Origin: Candidatus Omnitrophota bacterium
GTDB lineage: Bacteria; Omnitrophota; Gorgyraeia; Zapsychrales; Zapsychraceae
DNA length: 64,000 bases
Assembly: GCA_020429915.1 (NCBI GenBank)
Contig: JAGQKV010000002.1
Span: 256,061 to 320,060, forward strand
Direction of reading: 5' to 3'
Under the pieces are notes generated by a model that had not been told where the DNA came from, ran no database searches, and saw only the letters and a list, made by a program, of their open reading frames with translations. The translations under genes were made by a program, and so were the position numbers. This document shows, one piece after another, positions 4,196 to 45,047 of this stretch (position 1 is its first letter; each line of letters begins with the position of its first letter).

Positions 4196-4271
4196 AATAG
4201 ACCTCCGTCGGCACATATCGACAGACATGGCCGTATGGTGTATTGGGTAGATTAAAGTAGGGATGATATAA

Positions 4272-6110: not shown

Positions 6111-7775
6111 CTAGGCCGGTGAGGGGTGCTCTTGATCTTCGTAGTCCAGCATCACGGCGGTGCCGAGATTGGACAGGCGGTCCCCGATCTTCTCAAGATT
6201 ATAAATCAATTCCAGGAAGAGGAATCCGGAATCCATTTTACATTTCTTTCGTTTGAGCCGGGTAACGTGATTTTGCTTGAGTTCATGTTCCAGTTCATTG
6301 AGCAGGTTTTCATGCTGCAAAACCCGCCGCGCCGCGAGCGGATCTTTTACAGCAAAGGCGCGTTCGGCCTCATCGAACATCGTCAGGACTTCGGCCTCCA
6401 TGCGTTTGATGTCGCTGATCGACTCATCCGAAAAGACATGCTTTCCCTCGACGCGGCGTTTGGTCAGTTCCGAGATATTCTGCGAATGGTCCCCGATCCG
6501 CTCCAGGTCATTGACGATATGGATCAGCACCGGAATCGATTCGGACTCCAACGGCTCCAGTTTTTTGCGGGACAGGCGGACGATATAGTCCGTGATCTGG
6601 CTCTGCAGGCTGTCGGTCACAGACTCCAATTCACTCGCCTTTTCGGCCATCTTCAGATCTTGATCGATAAAACTTTCGGTGGCGTTGACCATGGCCTTAC
6701 GGCTGATCTTCAGCATATAGGAAACTTCCTTATGCACCTGTTCCATGGCCAAGCTGGGAGATTCCAGCAAGTGTTCTTCCAGATACTGCGTTCCGTAGTC
6801 GATGGCATCTTTGCCCTTGGGCACCAGCCTGGTGCTGAGTCGTTCCAGAAAATTAATGAATGGGAGAAACACCGCCGTATTGATCACGTTGAACACACTG
6901 TGGGCGACGGCAATGTGGATCATGATGTTCTCCGTCGACAAATCGCCGGGGACCAGCCACTTGATCAGTTCCGTGTACCAGCCGAGCGACACGAAGACGA
7001 GCATGTACGCGGTCCCCAGGACATTAAATATCGTGTGCGACATCGCCGCGCGCCGGGCATTCAAGTTGGTCCCGATCGCGGCCAATTGCGCGGTGATGGT
7101 GGTCCCGATATTGTCACCGAGGATAATCGGGATCGCCGCCTCCAGCGGAATCAATCCCTTAAAGGCCATGACCTGGACAATGGCGATTGTGGCGCTGGAG
7201 CTTTGCAGTAAGACGGTGAAGATGATCCCCGCAAAGACGGCCAGGACGGGATGATGACTGAGCGCGCTAAAGGTATCATAAATGAACGCACTGTCCTTCA
7301 ATGGCTCAAAGGCGTCCTTCATGTAGTCCAGTCCGGTAAAGAGAATCCCGAATCCCATCAAGACCAGCCCGACGTTTTTACGCCTTCCCTTCCCCAGGGC
7401 GTTGAGGGCAAAGCCGATCCCGACCGCGGGCAAGGCGTACTTGCTGACCTTAAAAACAGACATGAACGACACCAGCCAGGCTGTGAACGTCGTCCCGATA
7501 TTGGCCCCCAGTATTAGCGGAATGGCCTGTTGCAGACTCAGCATCGACGCGTTGACGAACCCGACGACAAACACGGTGGTAACGCTGGAAGACTGGACTA
7601 AGAGTGTGGTCAAAGCCCCAACAAAGACACCGTAGATGCGGTGCTTGGTGACGGTGTGCAGGAATTGTTTGAGTTTGTCGCTGGCTACCCGTTTGAGGCC
7701 GCCGGACATAGTTTGCATGCCGAGAAAAAAGAATCCCAGCCCGCCGATGAGAAGAAACGCCGATTCGAACGTCAT
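6111..7775 (-). CDS. Na+/phosphate cotransporter family protein with C-terminal PhoU-like domains (YjbB-like)
   Basis: 554 aa; N-terminal Na/Pi-cotransporter II-related membrane domain (two inverted repeats) and ~200 aa C-terminal PhoU-type helical repeats; GGAAAGGA Shine-Dalgarno site. Confidence 0.85.
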   Translation of the reverse strand: MTFESAFLLIGGLGFFFLGMQTMSGGLKRVASDKLKQFLHTVTKHRIYGVFVGALTTLLVQSSSVTTVFVVGFVNASMLSLQQAIPLILGANIGTTFTAWLVSFMSVFKVSKYALPAVGIGFALNALGKGRRKNVGLVLMGFGILFTGLDYMKDAFEPLKDSAFIYDTFSALSHHPVLAVFAGIIFTVLLQSSSATIAIVQVMAFKGLIPLEAAIPIILGDNIGTTITAQLAAIGTNLNARRAAMSHTIFNVLGTAYMLVFVSLGWYTELIKWLVPGDLSTENIMIHIAVAHSVFNVINTAVFLPFINFLERLSTRLVPKGKDAIDYGTQYLEEHLLESPSLAMEQVHKEVSYMLKISRKAMVNATESFIDQDLKMAEKASELESVTDSLQSQITDYIVRLSRKKLEPLESESIPVLIHIVNDLERIGDHSQNISELTKRRVEGKHVFSDESISDIKRMEAEVLTMFDEAERAFAVKDPLAARRVLQHENLLNELEHELKQNHVTRLKRKKCKMDSGFLFLELIYNLEKIGDRLSNLGTAVMLDYEDQEHPSPA

Positions 7776-7922
7776 GCGGGGTCCTTTCCGTGGATCAGAT
7801 AATAACGCCGGGAAAAATGCGGCGTGTATGTCGGTGTTGAGGTTTGTTTACATTCTAATGCAAACAGGCGGGTGCGTACACCGTATTTCCGGAAAATACG
7901 TGATTTTTCTTTAGGATGGGAA

Positions 7923-8444
7923 CTACTCCCCGTCCCAATAGCTGACGTTCAGCTCTTCGCGTCCGATGTACATGAAGCGGTTCGGTTTGCCGTCCGGTCC
8001 CGCGGGGCGTTCGTCAAGCACGCCGAATTTATTGGAATCCGGGTACTCCGCGATCTCCGGGGTCTGCTTGGTGCTGACGGCGAGGTATTTGAGCTCGGTA
8101 TCGCCGGTGTTGATGATCTGATGCGCGGTTTCGGGCCCTCCCGGCGGGCAGGCGATGAAGTCTCCCTTTTTCACGGGATATGTTTCCGTGCCGATGCGGA
8201 CCTCACCGGAGCCTTCGAGGATGAAGAACAGCTCTTCGTTGACGCGGTGATTGTGAAACGGAAACGCGCGCTTGCCCGGGGGCACCGCGGTGATGTTGTA
8301 GCCGAGCTTTTTCGCGCCGATCGCCGGGGCGATGTGCGCCAGCTTGGCGTCATACTTCAGCGCCGTCTCCTCTGTCTGAGGCGCAAACGCCGCCGGCCGC
8401 GGTTCAAATTTGAGGTCGTTGAGGTTGATGATGGGGGTGGGCAT
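7923..8444 (-). CDS. cupin domain protein
   Basis: 173 aa; cupin motifs G(X)5HXH...P(X)4H-like (FPFHNHRVNEELFFILEGSGE); AAGGAG Shine-Dalgarno site. Confidence 0.7.
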   Translation of the reverse strand: MPTPIINLNDLKFEPRPAAFAPQTEETALKYDAKLAHIAPAIGAKKLGYNITAVPPGKRAFPFHNHRVNEELFFILEGSGEVRIGTETYPVKKGDFIACPPGGPETAHQIINTGDTELKYLAVSTKQTPEIAEYPDSNKFGVLDERPAGPDGKPNRFMYIGREELNVSYWDGE

Positions 8445-8706: not shown

Positions 8707-10023
8707 TTATTTTCCGGCCCACAGAAAATAGCGCAGATAAATGTACACCGATGAAATCACCAGCGCCAACACCGTAAACGGTACCCCGTAGGCGAGAAAC
8801 GTCCGGAAACGGATCGGGATGTTGTTCTTCTCTCCGATCCGCGACATGATGATGTTAGCCGAGGCCCCGATCAAAGTCCCGTTGCCGCCCAGACACGCCC
8901 CCAGGGCGAGCGACCAGAACAGTGGTTCGGCGATCGACGCGCGGGCCGCTTCAGCCGGGATGCCGGCGCTCTCGGCGAAGTGATGCGCGAACAACCGCAC
9001 CAGCGGGACCATCGTGATCACGAAGGGGATATTATCCAGAATTGCCGACAGGAACCCGCCTCCCCACAGGATCAGCAGGCACAGGACGAGCAGGTTGTCA
9101 CCGGACCAGCTGATGATCTGCCGCCCGATCGATTCGATGACTCCGTTGTGTTCCAGCGCGGAGATCATCATGAACATGCCGATAAAGAAAAAGATGACCC
9201 CCCACTCCACATGCATCAGCGTCTCTTCGGTATGCGCCCGGCAGACCAGCAGCATGATCATCCCGCCCAGCAGCGCTACCACTCCGGGTTCCACGTGCGT
9301 CACCTCCTGCAGGATAAAACCGAGAAAGATGAACGCCAGGATGATCAGTGATTTGCGCATGTTCACCGGGTCGACGATCGCCAACCGCGGGACGGCGCCC
9401 GTGACCCGGTGTTGAATATTGACGGGGATATGATAACGGTTGCGGATCAGCAGGTAAACCGCGGACAGGGTCGCCAGCATGATGACCACTACGACCGGCC
9501 CCAGGTGCATGAGAAAATCGTTGAACGAAAGGTGCACTTGCGAACCGATGACGATATTGGGCGGGTCCCCGATCAACGTGGCCGTCCCACCGATGTTCGA
9601 GACGATGGCCTCCATGATGATCAACGGGCCCGGCGCGCAATTCAAAAGTTGGAAGATCAGGACCGAAACCGGTACGATCAGGATGATGGTCGTGACGTTG
9701 TCCAGAAATGCCGATAACACCGCGGTCACGGTCAACAGCAGCAGCGTGATGCGGACCGGGTCGCCGTCCGCCATTTTTGCGACCGTGATCGCGATCCATT
9801 CAAAGAATCCGGTGCGTGCGATCACCTTCACGCACAGCATCATTCCCACCAGAAGAAAGATGACGTTGAAGTCCACAGCCTTCATCGCGTCCTCGAAGGA
9901 GACGAGCCGCAAGGCGACCACCAGAGTCCCGCCGACCATGGCCACAATGGTCTTGTTGACCTTTTCCGTGGCGATCAGGATATAACTGAAAATAAAAATG
10001 GCGATGGAGATGGCGGAATTCAT
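8707..10023 (-). CDS. ArsB/NhaD-family anion/cation permease (CitMHS superfamily)
   Basis: 438 aa, ~12 TM helices, internal duplication, LSAFLDNVTT/ILDNIP motifs typical of the family. Confidence 0.8.
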   Translation of the reverse strand: MNSAISIAIFIFSYILIATEKVNKTIVAMVGGTLVVALRLVSFEDAMKAVDFNVIFLLVGMMLCVKVIARTGFFEWIAITVAKMADGDPVRITLLLLTVTAVLSAFLDNVTTIILIVPVSVLIFQLLNCAPGPLIIMEAIVSNIGGTATLIGDPPNIVIGSQVHLSFNDFLMHLGPVVVVIMLATLSAVYLLIRNRYHIPVNIQHRVTGAVPRLAIVDPVNMRKSLIILAFIFLGFILQEVTHVEPGVVALLGGMIMLLVCRAHTEETLMHVEWGVIFFFIGMFMMISALEHNGVIESIGRQIISWSGDNLLVLCLLILWGGGFLSAILDNIPFVITMVPLVRLFAHHFAESAGIPAEAARASIAEPLFWSLALGACLGGNGTLIGASANIIMSRIGEKNNIPIRFRTFLAYGVPFTVLALVISSVYIYLRYFLWAGK

Positions 10024-10025
10024 TT

Positions 10026-10952
10026 TTACAAAAACAGAATTTTATCGATGATGGTAAAGCGGTCCACGATGCCCACCAGGCGCAGGGAATCGTCCGTAAT
10101 GTACAGCTTGGCCTGGTCCTTGATCGCCAGCAAAAATATCAGCTCGATAAGGGTGGCCTGACCGGAAACCGGTGTCACTTTTCGGAGTACGGCCTCCTCC
10201 AGGCGGAGATTTTTCTTGTCCGTAAAGTACTGCTCAAACGGATCGATGTGCCGGATAAAGGAGATCGTGGTCATGTCCTGAAAGAAATCAGGCAGTTCCA
10301 TGCGCAGGACGTCCCGGCAGGTCACCTCTCCCATCAGCCGGTCCTGGCTGTCCACCACCGGCAGGATGTCCATCTTGTGCAGGTGCATCAACCGCGTGGC
10401 CTCCTTGATATCCATGTCCAGTGTGGCCTTGACCAGGACCGGACGCATCACTTGTTCAGCCACCACCTGACCGGTCAGTTCGACTTGGGCCAGCAAAAGC
10501 TGTTGAATATCCGACCAGTCGTACTGTCCTCCCAGCCGGATCTTTTGCGGCAGTCCCGCGTCCAGAAAGAAATGGCTGAGCGCGGACATGGCCTGTAGAA
10601 CCGTGTAGGGTTCGTTCAGCGAGGAGACCATCAGACAGACGATATGGACCCGACCCTGGTCCGCGGCGCCGAAGTCGATCCCTTTCGCGCTGATGCCGAT
10701 CAAAAGGACGAATTCCTTCCACCCCTCAATGCGGGCGTGCGGAAAGGCGATGCCGTCACCCAGGGCGGTGCTTTGCAGATTCTCCCGTTCCATCAGCATC
10801 CGCAGGCAGTCTTCTCGGCTGACCGCGCCGCCGACCGCCGAGCGCCGGGAATACAAGGCATTGACAAGAAAGGCGACGGCCTCTTCTTTGGTGGCGGCCT
10901 GCATATCCGGAAACACCAGGTCCCGGGAGAGAAAATCCGCTATTCGGCTCAC
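10026..10952 (-). CDS. PTS EIIA type-2 (PtsN-like) domain protein fused to a CBS-domain pair
   Basis: 308 aa; N-terminal EIIA-2 domain with phosphorylatable His motif (GIAFPHAR); two C-terminal CBS repeats; GTG start with GGAG Shine-Dalgarno site; 2-nt gap to the permease gene. Confidence 0.7.
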   Translation of the reverse strand: MSRIADFLSRDLVFPDMQAATKEEAVAFLVNALYSRRSAVGGAVSREDCLRMLMERENLQSTALGDGIAFPHARIEGWKEFVLLIGISAKGIDFGAADQGRVHIVCLMVSSLNEPYTVLQAMSALSHFFLDAGLPQKIRLGGQYDWSDIQQLLLAQVELTGQVVAEQVMRPVLVKATLDMDIKEATRLMHLHKMDILPVVDSQDRLMGEVTCRDVLRMELPDFFQDMTTISFIRHIDPFEQYFTDKKNLRLEEAVLRKVTPVSGQATLIELIFLLAIKDQAKLYITDDSLRLVGIVDRFTIIDKILFL

Positions 10953-25182: not shown

Positions 25183-25222
25183 AAAAAAACGCGGACGCCC
25201 TACGGGGACGTCCGCGTTTGTT
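25183..25222. terminator. bidirectional rho-independent terminator
   Basis: AAAAAAACGCGGACGCCCTACGGGGACGTCCGCGTTTGTT: ~11 bp GC stem with A-run on one side and T-run on the other; sits between convergent genes 24684..25172(+) and 25234..25605(-). Confidence 0.65.
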
Positions 25223-25233
25223 AGTGATTCGAA

Positions 25234-25605
25234 TTACTTGCTGCCCTTCATCGAGCCGTGGGACATGTCATCCCCCTTCATGCTTCCGTGATGATCTCCC
25301 ATCATTTTTATATATTTTGACATCTGCTCTTCGTTAAGGATGGACTTCAACGTGTCCATATACTCCTTATCCGCGGCGGCAATCTTGTCCATTTTAGTCT
25401 GCTTGGCGGCATCCATTTTGGCGGCCTGGTCTTCGCTCAGACCCAGCTTGTGATGCCATTTGTCCATGTGCGCGGTCATTTTCTTGTCTTTTTTCATGAC
25501 CTTGGTATCGTCATCCCCGACCCCGCAAACCCCGCAATGCGCGTGGGCCGTTCCGCCGGCCATGATCAGACTGCCGACGATCATGACTATTATTTTCCGT
25601 TTCAT
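25234..25605 (-). CDS. periplasmic Spy/CpxP/ZraP-family-like protein with HCGVCG and His/Met-rich C-terminus
   Basis: 123 aa; signal peptide; two LTXXQ-like motifs (LSEDQ, LNEEQ); HxxxHH and GDHHGSMKGDDMSHGSMKG metal-binding-like tail. Confidence 0.55.
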   Translation of the reverse strand: MKRKIIVMIVGSLIMAGGTAHAHCGVCGVGDDDTKVMKKDKKMTAHMDKWHHKLGLSEDQAAKMDAAKQTKMDKIAAADKEYMDTLKSILNEEQMSKYIKMMGDHHGSMKGDDMSHGSMKGSK

Positions 25606-25771
25606 AAAATATCCTTTCCTGTTGGCTAAATTGGTTGGTAATAGACAGTCCCGCTGCCGGTCCGGCCGCGACCGTTCCCTGCGACGCCTCCGTCCTCAGT
25701 TGAAATGCGGATCCCCCATTATTCATGAAGGTTTGACCATTTCGCGCAGGTCACCTGAGTGACTATGCGGG

Positions 25772-25800
25772 ATTATAGCGTGCCCTTTAGTCTTTGGCAA
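25772..25800 (-). promoter_or_regulatory. candidate sigma70 promoter (TTGCCA-17-TATAAT, minus strand) upstream of the ZraP-like gene
   Basis: read directly from sequence; ~160 nt 5' of start codon at 25605. Confidence 0.3.
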
Positions 25801-25940
25801 GATGGATGCGGGATAAGCGATATACGGGAGGCTGCCATGCGGAGGTGCGTGAAAGCAGCACGGCCGAATCCCGTCCCCTGACGGGGGGCTGGGAACGGGA
25901 TGGCCGTGCTCCAGGCGGGAGTGCGTGCTTGTCAGGCTAG

Positions 25941-26114
25941 CTACAGATAACGGTAGTCCGCACTGACCAGCTGGCGGAAGTGGAGAAAACAGAATTCATG
26001 CGGGTTGTACATACTCAGACGCTTTCCGCAACCGGGATGGCGGCAGGTACGTTGCTGTGTTTTCGTCTTCCTGGGGGTGGTATGTTTCTTCGGTTTCAAG
26101 GTTGTACTGCTCAT
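25941..26114 (-). CDS. possible small basic zinc-ribbon-like protein (58 aa)
   Basis: sub-ORF MSSTTLKPKKHTTPRKTKTQQRTCRHPGCGKRLSMYNPHEFCFLHF... (C-x4-C-x12-C-x2-H); lies in the 30-nt gap-free slot downstream of 26144..26836; weak. Confidence 0.3.
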   Translation of the reverse strand: MSSTTLKPKKHTTPRKTKTQQRTCRHPGCGKRLSMYNPHEFCFLHFRQLVSADYRYL

Positions 26115-26143
26115 GACGCTCGATCCTTTCTGCTGACCGATCT

Positions 26144-26836
26144 TCAGGATAGTCCTTGCAGTTGTTCGAAAGCTTTGATGATCAGAAGCACATGCCGGAC
26201 TTCGGTGGTGTTCCGGAAGCGTTCGATCAGATGCGGTATATGAAGCAATTTTGCGATTTGGGCCACCATACGCATATGCATATACGGTGACGGCGCGCAT
26301 GGCACGAACATCAAATGGACTTTGTGCCCGTCTGTAGCTCCGAAGTCGATTCCGCAGGCCGAACGGGCGATAATCAACTTCGGAGTGCGAAAAAGCCGAG
26401 CGTTCGGGAATCGTGAGTGCGGAATGGCCACTCCGCGGCTGATCACTGTAGGTTGCAGGGTTTCACGACGCTCCAACTCCAGGTAAAATTCCTCGTAAGA
26501 AGTGGCTGCCCCGGCCGCGACGGCCAGCTTGGCCAGACGGGAAAGCGCCTTGTTCCGTGAGCCGGCCTCGCAATGCAGATCGATCAGCGTTTCGTCGGTA
26601 AGGTGTGATAGGGGAATCGGGTGGTCCGCTGAATGGATAAGCATGTCCAGATCCTGGTCCGGGGACTCTACAATCGTTTGTTGCAGCCGCAGGTCCGCGA
26701 CCGCCAGGGGTAAGAACTCCTGCTCGTCCCTGATTCCGCGACCGCCGGAGGTGGCTTCCGTTACCGGCGCGCGATGCTCGTGGAGACGAATATAGTCCGC
26801 CAATTCGCGGATGGTCATAATGGCATTGATCTTCAT
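26144..26836 (-). CDS. PTS EIIA type-2 (PtsN-like) domain protein with N-terminal putative HTH
   Basis: 230 aa; C-terminal EIIA-2 domain with His motif (GVAIPHSR); N-terminal ~50 aa resembles excisionase/MerR-type HTH (MTIRELADYIRL). Confidence 0.65.
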   Translation of the reverse strand: MKINAIMTIRELADYIRLHEHRAPVTEATSGGRGIRDEQEFLPLAVADLRLQQTIVESPDQDLDMLIHSADHPIPLSHLTDETLIDLHCEAGSRNKALSRLAKLAVAAGAATSYEEFYLELERRETLQPTVISRGVAIPHSRFPNARLFRTPKLIIARSACGIDFGATDGHKVHLMFVPCAPSPYMHMRMVAQIAKLLHIPHLIERFRNTTEVRHVLLIIKAFEQLQGLS

Positions 26837-26900
26837 GGGTATACCTGCCTTTTATCGGTTGATCAAGGTTGAATCGGCCAGTTCGGAAATCCGCGGCGGA

Positions 26901-27521
26901 TTACTTCAGTTGGCTGATGCGGCCCGGTGGCCAGTAAATCCATTCGGCGCGCCCGATGATGTTTTTCTCGGGTACGAATCCCCAGTAACGGCTGTCGGCA
27001 CTTGAGGCGCTGTTATCTCCCAGGACATACACCTGCCCCTCCGGTACCGTGACGGACTTTTTTTCATCACTGAGTGAGCCCATATTAAAATAGTGCTGAC
27101 CGGCAATACGCGGTTCGTCCAGTTGCCGGTCATTGACGTAAATATGTCCGTCCTTTATACGGACGGTTTCACCGCCGAAAGCGATTAGGCGCTTGATAAA
27201 GTCGCGTGAGGGATCCACGGGGTAGTCAAATACGATGATGTCCCCCCGTTCGGGTTTTCCGAAGCCCGGCAAACGGTACTCGGTTAAAGGTACCCGCCCT
27301 CCGTACCGTAGTTTATTGACGATCAACCGGTCTCCGATTTTGAGCGTCGGGTGCATCGAACCGCTCGGGATTTTGAAGGGCTGGACCAGGAATGAGCGGA
27401 TGAGTAAGGCCAAACCAACCGCGACCACCAGGGTTTCCGCCCATTCCCGAATCCACTTCCTTACTTTCGGAGGCACGCGCGCTATTGTCGCGCAGTAAAT
27501 TTGTCCCTTCTTATTTAGCAT
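26901..27521 (-). CDS. lepB: signal peptidase I
   Basis: 206 aa; N-terminal TM helix, catalytic Ser box SGSMHPTL, Lys box and GDNSASSADSRYWG box. Confidence 0.9.
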   Translation of the reverse strand: MLNKKGQIYCATIARVPPKVRKWIREWAETLVVAVGLALLIRSFLVQPFKIPSGSMHPTLKIGDRLIVNKLRYGGRVPLTEYRLPGFGKPERGDIIVFDYPVDPSRDFIKRLIAFGGETVRIKDGHIYVNDRQLDEPRIAGQHYFNMGSLSDEKKSVTVPEGQVYVLGDNSASSADSRYWGFVPEKNIIGRAEWIYWPPGRISQLK

Positions 27522-27552
27522 GCACTGTCCTGCTTTGTAGTTAGCCCGGCTG

Positions 27553-28167
27553 TTACGCCTTTTTGGGGATGCTGATCACCAGCCGGTCCCCGTTACGAGA
27601 GGTTTGCATTTTTTCCGTGTCGGCATCCGACGGCAACTGGACCGTGCGCATGAAACTGCCGAAGCTTTGCGATTTCATGAAGGCCTCCGGACCGGTCTCC
27701 TCTTTATCCTGCGACTGTTGACCGCTGATCGTCAGCGTTTGATCATGTATGGAGATATCGATCTTGTCCCGGTCGTATCCCTGGATGTCGAAGGTTATTT
27801 TGTAACCGGTGTCTGTTTCGTCCAGGTTGAATGAATTGTCGAAGACCATGCTGTTTCGGAACATGCCGGATCCCGCCGCGCTAAAGCCGGGGTTTGTAAA
27901 CGCATGACGAAACAAGCGGTTCATTTCGGCCTGCATGCGATCCATTTCGGCCAGAGGATCCCAACTGTTCTGATTTGGCGTGGCCAGCGGCGTCTGACCG
28001 ATCTGCGCGGGCGTGGAGGCCTCCAACTGCTCTACCTTTTCCTGCAACGCGGCTATTTGGGCTTGCAGGTCTTCAATGGTTGCGTCGGCGGCGAGGGCGG
28101 GTGAACCGGTCACGGATATCGCGGCCACGGCCGCCAAAAGGGAAATCAACAGGTTTGTCGCTTTCAT
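27553..28167 (-). CDS. Hsp20/alpha-crystallin-family small heat-shock protein with Sec signal peptide (predicted periplasmic)
   Basis: 204 aa; clear signal peptide (AISVTGSPALA/AD), coiled-coil segment, then the alpha-crystallin domain (DETDTGYKITFDIQGYDRDKIDISIHDQTLTISG...SFGSFMRTVQLP...GDRLVISIPK). Confidence 0.75.
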   Translation of the reverse strand: MKATNLLISLLAAVAAISVTGSPALAADATIEDLQAQIAALQEKVEQLEASTPAQIGQTPLATPNQNSWDPLAEMDRMQAEMNRLFRHAFTNPGFSAAGSGMFRNSMVFDNSFNLDETDTGYKITFDIQGYDRDKIDISIHDQTLTISGQQSQDKEETGPEAFMKSQSFGSFMRTVQLPSDADTEKMQTSRNGDRLVISIPKKA

Positions 28168-28553
28168 GATTTCACCTCCTGCTTATGGGGTTTATATTGG
28201 GTTTGATACAAGGCCCGATCAATCTTATGCAACAAGACATCGATGCCTTCGGATTTGTCAAAATAGTCCGTTGCCGCTTCCAAAAGCCGGCGTTGGTCGT
28301 CCACGGGATAAACACTCGCCACGATGACCGGAATCATGCTGTGAAAGCAGCTCAACACTTCATACAGCGTGTCGCCGTTGGGTTCGCCGATGTTGATGTC
28401 CAGCAGGACCAAGTCGATGCGGTCCAGTTTCATCTGTTCGCGGGCATCCACGACATTTCCCGCCTCAAGAACCCTGAACCCGCGAGGCTCAAGAAACCGG
28501 CGGTATATCCTGCGGATCCGGGCTTCATCTTCCACAATCAGAATGGTGCGCAT
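28164..28553 (-). CDS. single-domain response regulator (CheY-like receiver)
   Basis: 129 aa; ILIVEDE...LVLLDINIGEPNG...KS(E/P) receiver motifs; ATGA overlap with the Hsp20 gene. Confidence 0.8.
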   Translation of the reverse strand: MRTILIVEDEARIRRIYRRFLEPRGFRVLEAGNVVDAREQMKLDRIDLVLLDINIGEPNGDTLYEVLSCFHSMIPVIVASVYPVDDQRRLLEAATDYFDKSEGIDVLLHKIDRALYQTQYKPHKQEVKS

Positions 28554-28746
28554 CGCTATTCTCCTTTTTGGCAGCCTTGGGCCGGGGTTGTTGACTGAAC
28601 GACCAGCTTTTCCTGGTCACCGGACGGTTATCCGGTCGGGGGCAGGCCCCGTTTTCACTTCTAGGTATACCCGAATCAGGATCAAAGGACGGTTAAAATA
28701 AGATTAGAATTTTCTTATCTTGGGTGGGGGGCGCTGATCGTGCGGC

Positions 28747-30216
28747 TCAGGTAAGGACGGGAAGTTCGACAGTGAACGTCGTACCTTTCCCTAAGGTGCT
28801 GGTAACATTGATATTGCCGTTATGAGCCTTGGCGATGGACTGGGCGATGTTCAGTCCCAGCCCGGTGCCGGATTCCTGCGTATCGTCAGCTCTGGGAACG
28901 CGAAAGAATTTTCGGAAAATATTGCGCAGATCCTCTTCCGAGATCCCCGGGCCCGTATCGGCAATAACCACACGGCAGGTTTGGCCCTGGCGGTGCAGTG
29001 AGACGCGCACCGATTCGCCGGCCGCGATATACTTGATCGCGTTACCGATGATATTGTGAAACAGACGGCGCAAGTGGACCTTATCCGCTTCCACACGGAT
29101 ATCCTCCGTTGGGATATCAAAAGTGATCACGATTTTCTTGGGTTCCGCGAGGATACGGGATTGCTCCGCGATTTCATCCATAAGCGCCGTCAGGCTGATG
29201 TCTTCGAACTGGAAGATATCGGGACGGTAATCCAGTTTGGCCAGCAGCAACAGGTCCTTGACCACTTTGATCATATGGTCGATGACCTCCAGACAGTCGG
29301 ACAACACCTTTTGATATTCGGCAGGAGTCTTCTCACTGTCGAGGGCAAGTTCGATCTCGCCCCGCAGCACGGCCAGCGGGGTTTTCAGTTCATGTGCGAC
29401 ATGGGAATTGAATTCACTGACGTGACCGAAGGAAGTCTCCAGTCGCTTAATCATGACGTTAAAAGACTGGATTAGCTCATGCATCTCCGCATCGACGGTT
29501 TTTTCCGGGATGCGCGCTCCGAGGTCTTTGTGTGTGATACGGTTGGCCATGTCCACGACTTCCCGGACCGGTTTCAATGACTCACGCGTGAAATAGCTTC
29601 CCACAAAACTGGTTCCCGCCAGGAACACCAGGATGGCCAGCGTCAGGAACAGTCCTAGCCGGCCGAGGACCGAATGAATATTGTCCTCCGAGGTGCCGAT
29701 CTGGACCGTCAGCCGGATCTGTCCCAGCGATACCGGTAAATTGATCATCCGTAGTCTCAGCGCCGCGTCACTAAATGAACGATAGTGCAGGGCGGTCAAG
29801 TCCGAAGGGGTCGCCGGCCCGAACAGGCGGGCGATATCGGCTGTATAGTTGTGCGAACTGAAGAGCGTTTGCCCGCGGGCATTCATGATGTTGATATAGT
29901 CATTCTTCAGATTCAGAACTTCCAGCTGGGATTTCCAAATATCATCGACGATCATACGGCGGTCGGCCGCTGCGTACTCGCTGTGCAAAAGATCCAGCAT
30001 CGTGGCGATGGGATGGCTGCGGCCGCGTTCCACGCGTTCGTAGGCCGCCAGGATACTGGCGACTTCCTCCGCCTTGATTTTCAACTCCTCGTCCAGGTCA
30101 TGGTAGAGAATGTTGTAGACGCTTCCGTAAATGACGGATCCAAAAAGGACAAGGATGGCCGCCAGAATAACCGAGTAAAGAATGCTGGCCTTGAAACGGA
30201 TCGAATTGAAGCGCAT
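28747..30216 (-). CDS. sensor histidine kinase (CusS/BaeS/CpxA-like architecture)
   Basis: 489 aa; TM-periplasmic(~150 aa)-TM-HAMP-HisKA(HVAHELKTPL)-HATPase_c(GTGLGLNIAQSIAKAHNG); 1-nt gap after the OmpR-type regulator gene. Confidence 0.85.
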   Translation of the reverse strand: MRFNSIRFKASILYSVILAAILVLFGSVIYGSVYNILYHDLDEELKIKAEEVASILAAYERVERGRSHPIATMLDLLHSEYAAADRRMIVDDIWKSQLEVLNLKNDYINIMNARGQTLFSSHNYTADIARLFGPATPSDLTALHYRSFSDAALRLRMINLPVSLGQIRLTVQIGTSEDNIHSVLGRLGLFLTLAILVFLAGTSFVGSYFTRESLKPVREVVDMANRITHKDLGARIPEKTVDAEMHELIQSFNVMIKRLETSFGHVSEFNSHVAHELKTPLAVLRGEIELALDSEKTPAEYQKVLSDCLEVIDHMIKVVKDLLLLAKLDYRPDIFQFEDISLTALMDEIAEQSRILAEPKKIVITFDIPTEDIRVEADKVHLRRLFHNIIGNAIKYIAAGESVRVSLHRQGQTCRVVIADTGPGISEEDLRNIFRKFFRVPRADDTQESGTGLGLNIAQSIAKAHNGNINVTSTLGKGTTFTVELPVLT

Positions 30217-30217
30217 A

Positions 30218-30892
30218 TCAGGATTCCTTTAAGACGTAGCCGGCCCCGCGAACGGAATGAATAAGTTTGTGATCAAAGTCCGCATCGATCTTTTTGCGCA
30301 GATAATTAACATAAACGTTTATCACATTGGAAAAGCTGTCGAAATCGTCATTCCACACATGTTCGGATATCATGGTGCGGGTCACCACCTGTCCGGCGTT
30401 CAGCATCAGATATTCCAGCAGTGCGAATTCCGTGCTTGTGAGCTCAATTTCCCGGTCCCCCCGAGTCACTTTCCGGGTAATCTGATTCAATTGCAGGTCG
30501 GCTACCTTAAGTACCGGGCTGGCTGCGTCCGTATTGCGCCGGATGAGAGCGCGGATGCGGGCGAGAAATTCGGCGAAGACAAACGGTTTCGTCAGATAAT
30601 CGTCGGCCCCGGCGTCTAGTCCCGAGATCTTGTCTTCCACGTCGTCGCGGGCCGTCAGCATCAGGATGGGGGTGCCGAGTTTCAATTTGCGCAACTGCCG
30701 GCATATGTACAAACCGTCTTTCCCCGGCAGCATGATGTCGAGAACGATTAAATCATAAGGGACTTCGCGGGCCTGAAACAAGCCGCTGTCGCCGTCTGCG
30801 GCCACGTCCACGGCATACCCCTTTTCTTTAAGGCCCCGCTTGATAAAGCTGGCAAGCTTCTTTTCGTCTTCAACGACTAAGATGCGCATCAA
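30218..30892 (-). CDS. OmpR/PhoB-family DNA-binding response regulator
   Basis: 224 aa; receiver domain (ILVVEDE...LIVLDIMLPGKDG) and winged-helix output domain (VTRTMISEHVW...YVNYLRKKID). Confidence 0.9.
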   Translation of the reverse strand: MMRILVVEDEKKLASFIKRGLKEKGYAVDVAADGDSGLFQAREVPYDLIVLDIMLPGKDGLYICRQLRKLKLGTPILMLTARDDVEDKISGLDAGADDYLTKPFVFAEFLARIRALIRRNTDAASPVLKVADLQLNQITRKVTRGDREIELTSTEFALLEYLMLNAGQVVTRTMISEHVWNDDFDSFSNVINVYVNYLRKKIDADFDHKLIHSVRGAGYVLKES

Positions 30893-30948
30893 ATTCTCCT
30901 TGATTGGTCTTGAAACGGGCGATCGGTCCGGCAGGGTCGTCTGAGAGA

Positions 30949-31689
30949 TTAGGGATGATTGCGTATATCTTCGAGTTTTTTTCGGAGCTGTTCAGCCGCC
31001 AGTTGTTGCGCTTCGCGGAATTCCTGTTGAATGGCGAGGCGCTCCTCCGGAGAGTTCGCCGTTTGCATACGGCTTTGGAATTCTTCCATGGCAGCTTGCT
31101 GAGAGCGGACATGCTCCTGGGAAAGGATTTGCATGTCTTGGGCGCGCTGCAGCTGGACTTCCGCCCGGTCATACTGTTGTTGCACCCGTTCGCGCTCTTG
31201 CTGCAGGCGCTGCCGTTGATAGGCTGTGTCGGCATTCTGGACCGAACCGTTCAGATGCTGTTCCCTGACGGCGAAGATTTCCTCTTGCATCTGCCGCGCG
31301 GCCTCCTGCTGGTTCTTCTGGTACCGGTTGCGTATGGCCTGCTGTTCCTCCGGCGAGGCGGTATTACGGATTTCCTCCTGGAAAGATATGGCAGCCTGCT
31401 GCTGTTTTAGGTAATGAGTCTGGGCGACTGCCTGCAGTTTTTCCGCCAACTCCCGCTGACGTTCATAGAGCTCTCTTTGGGCATTCTCAACCGGGTTGGT
31501 GTCATCAATCAGCGGCGCGGTCTCGTCAGGGGTCAACACCCGTGTTTCCGCGGCCCGCGTTTGCAACTGGCGGATCATCCCTTCCCGCTGGCGCTGGGCG
31601 TCCCGGTAACGTTCCATGGCGGGGTCCTGCGCCAGCGCGTTGCCGATCGGAAATAAGCAGGCGCCAAGGCAATATGCGGCGATCTTCAT
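30949..31689 (-). CDS. periplasmic Gln/Arg/Glu-rich coiled-coil protein with repeated SPEEQ/SPEER (LTXXQ-like) motifs; CpxP/Spy-like
   Basis: Start trimmed to MKIAAYCLGACLF (signal peptide; the track ORF extends to 31731); internally repetitive, e.g. NTASPEEQQAIRNRYQKNQQEAARQMQEE and TANSPEERLAIQQEFREAQQLAAEQ; first gene of the regulator-kinase operon. Confidence 0.55.
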   Translation of the reverse strand: MKIAAYCLGACLFPIGNALAQDPAMERYRDAQRQREGMIRQLQTRAAETRVLTPDETAPLIDDTNPVENAQRELYERQRELAEKLQAVAQTHYLKQQQAAISFQEEIRNTASPEEQQAIRNRYQKNQQEAARQMQEEIFAVREQHLNGSVQNADTAYQRQRLQQERERVQQQYDRAEVQLQRAQDMQILSQEHVRSQQAAMEEFQSRMQTANSPEERLAIQQEFREAQQLAAEQLRKKLEDIRNHP

Positions 31690-31798
31690 ATACAACTTGT
31701 TGCGGGATATAGCGTATTTACGCATGATCATTTGAAAGGCTCTTGTGTTAGTGACTTTAGCAGAATTATACTCCGGGATGGGGCCGATGGCAAGCCGG

Positions 31799-44935: not shown

Positions 44936-45047
44936 GGTATACTCCCCCGAGTTTGTTAACTTTGGCTTCATTATAAGCATGAAAATGCTATAATTAAAAT
45001 TATATTTTCTTAAATTAACGATTAAATTTTCTAATACCTAAGGAACG

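Follow-up and report, generated by a model that had tools for sequence, protein, structure and literature searches.

The 64,000-nt stretch analyzed here (the window; from contig JAGQKV010000002.1 of a Candidatus Omnitrophota bacterium) carries a gene module that is best explained as an envelope-stress circuit, in which a two-component system would act through a 38-nt operator on a receiver gene and on secreted quality-control cargo. We put the probability of this explanation at about 60%. The module lies in a row of co-oriented minus-strand genes at 25234-31731, which number nine and not ten, as a first-pass annotation of this DNA had counted, and are called g1-g9 along the direction of transcription. 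Domains were assigned by Pfam and NCBIfam scans of the window proteins, and the window was compared with related metagenome loci and contigs, labelled L0xx, L1xx and L2xx. No description of the arrangement was found in the literature searched, in line with its having been flagged as undescribed. The features that make up the module are as follows.

30218-30889, minus strand: g2, response regulator of the OmpR/PhoB family, CopR/CusR/HprR sequence group, 223 aa from its ATG
28747-30216, minus strand: g3, membrane histidine kinase with two transmembrane segments, a periplasmic sensor of ~155 aa, HAMP, HisKA and HATPase_c
28681-28718, minus strand: operator, a 38-nt box of tandem 11-bp direct repeats, ATAAGAAAATTC TAATCTTATTT TAACCGTCCTT TGAT
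28664-28669, minus strand: -10-like hexamer TATACC, 11 nt past the 38-nt box
28164-28553, minus strand: g4, single-domain receiver (Pfam 4.9e-16) with Asp in LLLDINIG, Ser in VASV and Lys in FDKS
27553-28167, minus strand: g5, Sec-type small heat-shock protein (sHSP) in which a signal peptide and a coiled coil, DLQAQIAALQEKVEQLE, precede a linker and an alpha-crystallin domain

The order regulator-kinase-receiver-secreted Hsp20 recurs in distant metagenome-assembled genomes (MAGs), and this recurrence identifies the conserved core as regulator, kinase, operator, receiver and secreted Hsp20. In L016 and L017 the genes stand in the same order in unrelated surroundings, with identities of 75% for the regulator, 51-53% for the kinase, 53-57% for the receiver and 43-45% for the secreted Hsp20. 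The regulator is still 65% identical in L020, where the regulator-kinase-receiver set lies ~6 kb from the Hsp20 genes, and L010 and L019 contain receiver-Hsp20 pairs as well. Three loci (L001, L006 and L008) keep the whole row. In two of them, L006 and L008, with Hsp20 proteins 63-65% identical to g5, conservation extends to the genes around the row; this is ordinary genome synteny and therefore uninformative.

The identities of the four core proteins proposed in the first-pass annotation, an OmpR-type regulator, a histidine kinase, a receiver-only protein and a signal-peptide-bearing Hsp20 coupled to the receiver through ATGA, all hold. The regulator g2 matches Response_reg (6.7e-29) and Trans_reg_C (2.3e-27) in Pfam, and the combination of a receiver, a winged-helix Trans_reg_C domain and a tandem-repeat site of ~11 bp beside the gene pair is that of the OmpR/PhoB family. 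The HAMP, HisKA and HATPase_c domains of g3 are likewise Pfam assignments. The g4 and g5 reading frames overlap by ATGA at 28164-28167, and the same overlap occurs in L006 and L008. In g5, the HSP20 domain (PF00011; 2.4e-14, 53.7 bits against a cut-off of 20.8) follows a canonical signal peptide, MKATNLLISLLAAVAAISVTGSPALA/AD. In L002, a locus from the same species in another sample, g2 is interrupted: tblastn recovers it at 7067-7947 as two segments, 7067-7618 and 7774-7947, and only fragments were called as genes there. This break is either a ~155-nt insertion or an assembly variant, which would inactivate the regulator in that population.

The operator lies in the 193-nt spacer between g3 and g4, where three repeats, TAAGAAAATTC, TAATCTTATTT and TAACCGTCCTT, follow each other in tandem at 11 bp. 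In the alignment of kinase-receiver spacers, a 19-nt core, ATAAGAAAATTCTAATCTT, shows no difference between the window, L006 and L008, and the 38-nt element is kept in L016, L017, L019 and L020. A TAtanT hexamer stands 10-11 nt past the box in most of the aligned sites, a few being degenerate, so that the third repeat covers the -35 position. By analogy, this layout resembles class II activation of the PhoB type. The operator occurs once in the 64-kb window, where 0 copies are expected by chance, and a search of the window found no second operator 5′ of g1, of the regulator-kinase pair or of g9. A weak operator-like match at 44998-45035 (minus strand), in the AT-rich divergent spacer between hemA (GlutR) and a LysR gene, scores 16.7 with the position weight matrix versus 56.5 for the true site and is probably due to chance. 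Promoters of the sigma54, sigma32 and sigmaE types were also considered for the receiver operon and, judged by eye, none fits.

All loci with the module contain the operator, and secreted-Hsp20 loci without a two-component system lack it. A pattern scan of metagenome contigs added ~25 further full-length copies. Where it is visible, the kinase gene is directly 5′ of the box (L132, L215, L136, L116 and L171), and the receiver is found 3′ of the operator in L016, L017, L019, L020, L132, L215 and L136. The genes that come with it differ. In L132 and L215, the receiver and then an HtrA/DegP protease (Trypsin_2 and two PDZ domains) come after the box; in L140, HtrA is directly 3′ of the box; in L136 and L116, small secreted proteins are 3′ of it; and in L019, the order is box, HPF-like gene, receiver and Hsp20. 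The receiver is the constant first gene of the operator-driven operon, and the cargo varies among periplasmic quality-control factors. That the same operator drives a receiver and HtrA/DegP elsewhere is the strongest support for an envelope protein-quality response. Together with the recurrence of the core and its operator in distant MAGs, it supports the earlier suggestion that the two-component system is tied to envelope protein folding.

An experimentally defined site is available for comparison in Corynebacterium glutamicum, where CopR binds TGAAGATTTnnTGAAGATTT (PMC3140484). On the opposite strand, the L017 operator reads aGAAGATTAatTGAAGATTA, close to the CopR site and with the same 11-bp period, and both systems share a direct-repeat operator with an AAGATT half-site (PMC3140484). 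The regulator g2 would accordingly be a candidate for binding the operator at 28681-28718, a proposal that we infer from sequence. The genes could instead have come together by chance, with the AT-rich box serving as a promoter UP-like element or as the site of an unrelated regulator. This would suit lepB (g6, described below), which is normally a housekeeping gene, the presence of an EIIA domain elsewhere in the window (10026-10952) and the 13 contigs that carry the box and no two-component system; however, it leaves unexplained why the regulator-kinase-box-receiver order is found in ten or more independent contexts whose cargo differs, why Hsp20 loci that have no two-component system do not have the box either, and why the 11-bp periodic repeats match the site architecture of the OmpR family, with a half-site that matches the CopR site. 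We regard chance juxtaposition as improbable.

Several points nevertheless weigh against an envelope-stress circuit built on this operator. First, ~13 related contigs (L216, L146, L212, L135, L203, L154, L213, L120, L214, L201, L196, L218 and L204) carry a near-perfect 38-nt operator and a TATAGT -10 hexamer with neither a two-component system nor a receiver nearby and with no obvious target. Second, autoregulation of the regulator-kinase pair is not evident, as the window has no second operator 5′ of these genes. Third, the regulator is linked to the operator by co-location and by resemblance to one characterized CopR site. Finally, the export of g5 is judged from its sequence features, and the co-transcription of g1 with the regulator and kinase from the short gap between them.

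Some of the operator-like sites stand beside other genes. In L216, the operator (4196-4233, plus strand) is flanked by a minus-strand gene of 188 aa with an internal duplication and by the 3′ end of a gene for an FAD oxidoreductase; a transcript from it would have no obvious open reading frame and could be a small RNA, or else the operator could act on the divergently oriented gene. A related element with 11-bp TTAAT repeats, TTAATTyAAAkTTAAyCTTCyyTTAATsATCGGTTsAC followed by TACAAT, is found in L010 (1417-1454) and L016 (14657-14694), in both cases 5′ of a conserved secreted protein of ~110 aa that is 78% identical between the two loci. The gene behind the receiver in L020 encodes a DUF5666-like secreted protein of 129 aa. 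The ~110-aa protein and the DUF5666-like protein are likely to be further members of the regulon that are absent from the window.

If the module is an envelope-stress circuit, it could operate as follows. The kinase g3 would sense an extracytoplasmic cue and phosphorylate g2, and g2 would bind the three 11-bp repeats overlapping the -35 position and activate transcription, rather than repress it, in the class II manner of PhoB. The operon would thereby be switched on, with the g4 receiver as its first product and periplasmic quality-control cargo after it: here the Sec-exported sHSP g5, which may act as an ATP-independent holdase, and HtrA/DegP in other lineages. Once induced, the receiver would most likely compete for the phosphoryl groups of the kinase, forming a phosphate sink and hence a negative feedback. 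The operon of this clade would have gained lepB, a gene with an EIIA domain and a Zn-ribbon gene, and g1 and g9 would be older neighbours under sigma70-type promoters of their own.

A module of this kind would work like the Cpx-type envelope-stress systems, and its nearest neighbours in sequence are CopRS, CusRS and HprSR; it falls short of strict membership in either group. As in CpxAR of E. coli, which controls CpxP, Spy and DegP, a membrane kinase and an OmpR-family regulator appear to control periplasmic quality factors, and a small induced protein likely feeds back on signalling. In contrast to CpxAR, the would-be feedback protein is a cytoplasmic receiver and not the periplasmic CpxP, the chaperone is an alpha-crystallin sHSP and not Spy, the operator sequence is different, and the sequences of the regulator and kinase resemble CopRS/CusRS/HprSR more than CpxRA. 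For g2, the match to the CpxR model (8.4e-45) is weaker than that to TIGR01387 (5.2e-83) in NCBIfam. CopRS of C. glutamicum and CusRS and HprSR of E. coli form the closest sequence family for both proteins. Within this family, HprSR controls msrPQ, a periplasmic protein-repair system whose genes adjoin hprRS in K-12.

This kinship raises the question of whether the module is a Cu/Ag resistance regulon of the CusRS/CopRS type, in which the kinase would sense periplasmic Cu(I)/Ag(I) and g9 and other secreted proteins would bind or buffer the metal. The best NCBIfam models for the pair are indeed the heavy-metal regulator and kinase subfamilies, TIGR01387 and TIGR01386, which are the closest families for g2 and g3, but both proteins score just below the cut-offs (278.0 bits, E 5.2e-83, against 279.2 for g2; 266.3 bits against 292.55 for g3). 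The Cu(I)/Ag(I) ligands of CusS, which we take to be His42/Phe43/His176 and Met133/Met135/His145, are not conserved. In an alignment with CusS and HprS, the Met/His loop of CusS is absent from g3; the position of His42 is occupied by His in the window clade alone, and the equivalents of His42 and His176 are not conserved among the module kinases of L016, L017 and L020. The operator resembles the CopR site, yet genes for efflux pumps, P-type ATPases and multicopper oxidases are missing from the operons that it drives, which carry Hsp20, HtrA or small secreted proteins as cargo, and an extra receiver is always the first target. As for g9, a CxxC motif, a His/Met-rich tail and Metal_resist matches in 15 of 71 relatives would suit a metal-binding protein, but the gene has its own promoter, has no operator and occurs in L015 with no two-component system. 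A metal regulon is thus unlikely, and a metal-specific role ranks well below a role in envelope folding; the metal-stress reading of the first-pass annotation is correspondingly weak.

The cargo of the module in this genome is itself unusual. Seven relatives of g5 were obtained in a word-indexed search, and all seven have a signal peptide, a coiled coil, LQAQIEALQKRVEQLEA, and an alpha-crystallin domain. The C-terminal IXI/V motif, an anchor in the assembly of sHSP oligomers, is absent from g5, which ends in LVISIPKKA, and from 7/7 of these relatives, the protein stopping right after the last strand of the domain. Compared with the cytoplasmic sHSPs IbpA and IbpB, with which g5 shares the alpha-crystallin domain (PF00011), a Sec-type signal peptide and the coiled coil replace the usual N-terminal region, the IXI tail is missing, and control would be by a two-component system and not by sigma32 or ROSE. 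Almost all of the full-length relatives of g5 come from Omnitrophota MAGs. In L009, the relative stands amid DsbD, YceI and HtrA genes, and in L003, it follows an RND pump; both settings are consistent with a periplasmic role of the secreted Hsp20. In L020 (8607-10597) and also in L018, L022, L024, L025 and L026, the secreted Hsp20 gene lies just 3′ of one or two Hsp20 genes that encode no signal peptide, which suggests that a cytoplasmic sHSP gene was duplicated locally and gave rise to the exported protein. Within the literature searched in full text, we found no paper on periplasmic or signal-peptide-bearing bacterial sHSPs. We therefore offer a broader proposal, to which we give somewhat less than even odds: Sec-exported alpha-crystallin sHSPs of Omnitrophota and a few other lineages may be periplasmic holdases and, with HtrA in some lineages, may form in Omnitrophota the output of a previously undescribed envelope-stress two-component system with its own operator and a receiver as phosphate sink.

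The remaining genes and signals of the row surround this core.

31765-31793, minus strand: sigma70-like promoter TTGCCA-17-TATAAT 5′ of g1, 11/12 consensus match
30949-31731, minus strand: g1, secreted Gln/Glu/Arg-rich protein of 260 aa with four long helices and two internal repeats
26901-27521, minus strand: g6, signal peptidase I (LepB); Peptidase_S26 3.3e-56, TIGR02227 1.2e-51
26144-26836, minus strand: g7, EIIA(Ntr/Fru)-type protein; PTS_EIIA_2 2e-22 over residues 80-221, His in GVAIPH
25941-26114, minus strand: g8, basic peptide of 57 aa, a called gene in L001, with C24-x4-C29...C42-x2-H45
25859-25908, minus strand: strong hairpin followed by CUGCUUUC, 3′ of g8
25772-25800, minus strand: sigma70-like promoter TTGCCA-17-TATAAT 5′ of g9, 11/12 match
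25234-25605, minus strand: g9, secreted protein of 123 aa, probably a divergent member of the LTXXQ superfamily, with the mature N-terminus HCGVCG and a His/Met-rich tail
25187-25219, minus strand: intrinsic terminator 3′ of g9, a 14-bp stem with 9 GC pairs followed by TTTTTAT

The most economical reading of these signals is that the row contains at least three transcription units, g1-g2-g3, g4-g8 and g9. The -35 and -10 hexamers of the g1 promoter are kept in L008. Between g1 and g2 the gap is 59 nt, in which neither a promoter nor a terminator is evident, and between g2 and g3 it is 1 nt; the g1 promoter probably also serves the regulator and kinase by read-through. The genes g4-g8 are closely packed: g4 and g5 overlap, and the next three spacers measure 31, 64 and 29 nt and are free of hairpins. 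Behind g8, a 101-nt stretch folds with a minimum free energy of -45.9 kcal/mol (z -3.84). The arms of this hairpin are kept in L006, and it is the probable end of the middle unit. The promoter of g9 has the same consensus as that of g1 and is kept in L006, where it is 5′ of an extra gene. This gene (L006, 5657-6148) encodes a membrane-anchored protein of 163 aa with a weak DUF2314 match and lies between the peptide gene and the g9 homologue. The g9 leader in the window (~165 nt) was checked as a possible remnant of it, and no remnant was found. An Rfam scan of the region gave no match.

The first-pass annotation had instead taken the whole row as a single envelope-stress supercluster; on such a reading, the two LTXXQ-type proteins would modulate the kinase in the manner of CpxP or ZraP. 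The nine genes are co-oriented and the row is whole in L001, L006 and L008, but the last two, as noted above, are uninformative in this respect. The most direct comparison is with L015, in which homologues of g1 (40% identity, E 7e-33) and g9 (57%) adjoin each other and none of g2-g8 intervenes; the locus shares the upstream CSD, IF-1 and PMT/TPR protein genes and the downstream receiver and cNMP-kinase genes with the window. This adjacency shows g2-g8 to be an indel block within an older g1/g9 pair. Secreted helical proteins with LTEDQ or LTSEE motifs are also found 5′ of the regulator gene in L016 and L017, and in L017 weaker copies of the box precede the secreted LTSEE-motif protein and the gene that follows it; however, tblastn gives no match between these upstream proteins and g1. 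The separate promoters, the hairpin, the terminator and the single operator in the window likewise argue against one regulon, as does the failure of g1 in every LTXXQ test. We consider a single supercluster very doubtful. Linkage in related genomes thus divides the row: regulator, kinase, receiver and Hsp20 stay together in distant MAGs, but lepB, the EIIA gene, the peptide gene, g1 and g9 are absent from the surroundings of the module in L016 and L017, and the first three are also absent beside it in L019 and L020. The genes g6-g8 form a tail specific to this clade, and g1 and g9 are neighbouring genes that do not belong to the module.

Within this tail, LepB and the Zn-ribbon peptide stand as first annotated, the latter as a putative zinc ribbon. 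For g6, Peptidase_S26 scores 190 bits and TIGR02227 174.8 against a cut-off of 47, and the motifs SGSM, KRLIA and GDNSxxSxDSRYWG, which include the Ser and Lys catalytic boxes, are readable, as in the S26 family. The 31-nt gap between hsp20 and lepB has no hairpin, so that g6 would be co-transcribed with g5, in this clade only. The LepB protein is intact, and the window encodes no second copy of it. The gene g7 had been described as an HTH-EIIA(Ntr) fusion, of which the EIIA half is secure (PTS_EIIA_2, 80 bits against a cut-off of 27, with the phosphorylatable His of GVAIPH). TIGR01419 gives only 34.7 against 138.7, and the protein is best classed as a generic EIIA_2 domain rather than as a PtsN equivalog; its nearest solved structure is PtsN 2a0j (3.5e-6). 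The EIIA domain is preceded by a conserved region of 75 residues, but a search of residues 1-82 from three orthologues at a threshold as loose as E<=10 detected no helix-turn-helix. At 10026-10952 (minus strand), the window encodes a second EIIA_2 protein, to which a CBS domain is fused, directly 5′ of a CitMHS-family transporter gene at 8707-10023 (minus strand), and EIIA-type regulatory domains thus serve in at least two contexts in this genome. The peptide g8 has a strongly basic N-terminal half and keeps its position in L006 and L008; its Pfam matches are sub-threshold and to eukaryotic or viral Cys-rich motifs (EsV_1_7_cys). A metagenome scan found no relatives of g7, so that the lepB-EIIA-peptide extension is untraceable outside the close clade. 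That the tail is functionally coupled to the module, for example by supplying additional signal peptidase when an exported chaperone is strongly induced, is speculative.

The two secreted proteins at the ends of the row had both been assigned to the LTXXQ type. For neither does a direct search with profile hidden Markov models confirm this; the assignment can be upheld for g9 through its relatives and fails for g1 altogether. The true start of g1 is likely M15 (31689). The protein has no Pfam or NCBIfam match, and PF07813 and PF13801 give none at E<0.1. Its two repeats (ASPEEQQAI and NSPEERLAI) have their SPEE motifs at hairpin turns of the AlphaFold2 model, and SPEEQ does not fall in the register of LTXXQ. 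The model (predicted local distance difference test score, pLDDT, 81.7) finds only generic helical bundles in a Foldseek search of the PDB, and hhalign of the g1 profile with E. coli CpxP and ZraP gives probabilities of 0.1-0.3%. A word-indexed homologue search with g1 returned nothing, probably owing to its composition.

Direct searches with g9 also give no match to PF07813 or PF13801 at E<0.1, and its close orthologues match only below threshold (Metal_resist 0.0036, DUF4890 0.018 and LTXXQ 0.39). An exhaustive profile search found 309 relatives. Among the 71 aligned at a profile E<=2e-6, PF07813 is matched by 45 (best 5.7e-9), Metal_resist by 15 and DUF4890 by 13; exactly two L[STGN]xxQ motifs are present in 60/71, and a CxxC just past the signal peptide in 58/71, with the consensus AHCGxCGxG. 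His/Met/KGS-rich tails are visible among the relatives listed. In g9, the two motifs are LSEDQ and LNEEQ, with L54, L56, Q60, L90 and Q94 invariant or nearly so in the 71 sequences, and the helices span residues 32-53, 58-89 and 92-107. The model has a pLDDT of 61.5 and no Foldseek match in the PDB with E<2.9. Alignment with E. coli ZraP and CpxP by hhalign has a probability of 3-10%, and in the CpxP alignment LSEDQ falls on LTEHQ. On these grounds g9 appears to be a divergent member of the LTXXQ superfamily, with an N-terminus that is probably metal- or redox-active. Like ZraP, CpxP and Spy, it is small, secreted and helical, has a pair of L[ST]xEQ motifs and is rich in His at its ends, and most of its profile-detected relatives match PF07813, which makes the label "ZraP-like" reasonable as a resemblance. 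It differs from these proteins in lying below every Pfam threshold and at an hhalign probability of <10%, and in the mature N-terminus HCGxCGxG of its subfamily; it has no sigma54 system of the ZraSR type beside it and no operator.

Elsewhere, the window carries ResB/CcsA and multihaem cytochromes, which fit the periplasmic cytochromes reported for the class Omnitrophia (PMC10066038).

If the proposed circuit is correct, it would be the first concrete envelope-stress circuit open to testing in Omnitrophota, an uncultured phylum, from the sensor and regulator through the operator sequence to the feedback receiver and the cargo. Holdases of the alpha-crystallin sHSP type are known from textbooks as proteins of the cytoplasm or of organelles, and none is known to have been described from the periplasm. 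The ATP-independent periplasmic chaperones described so far are Spy, Skp, SurA and HdeA/B, to which an sHSP family under two-component control would add a new class. The defined operator permits prediction of the regulon in MAGs, and the exchange of sHSP for HtrA as cargo would provide a natural experiment on what the system protects.

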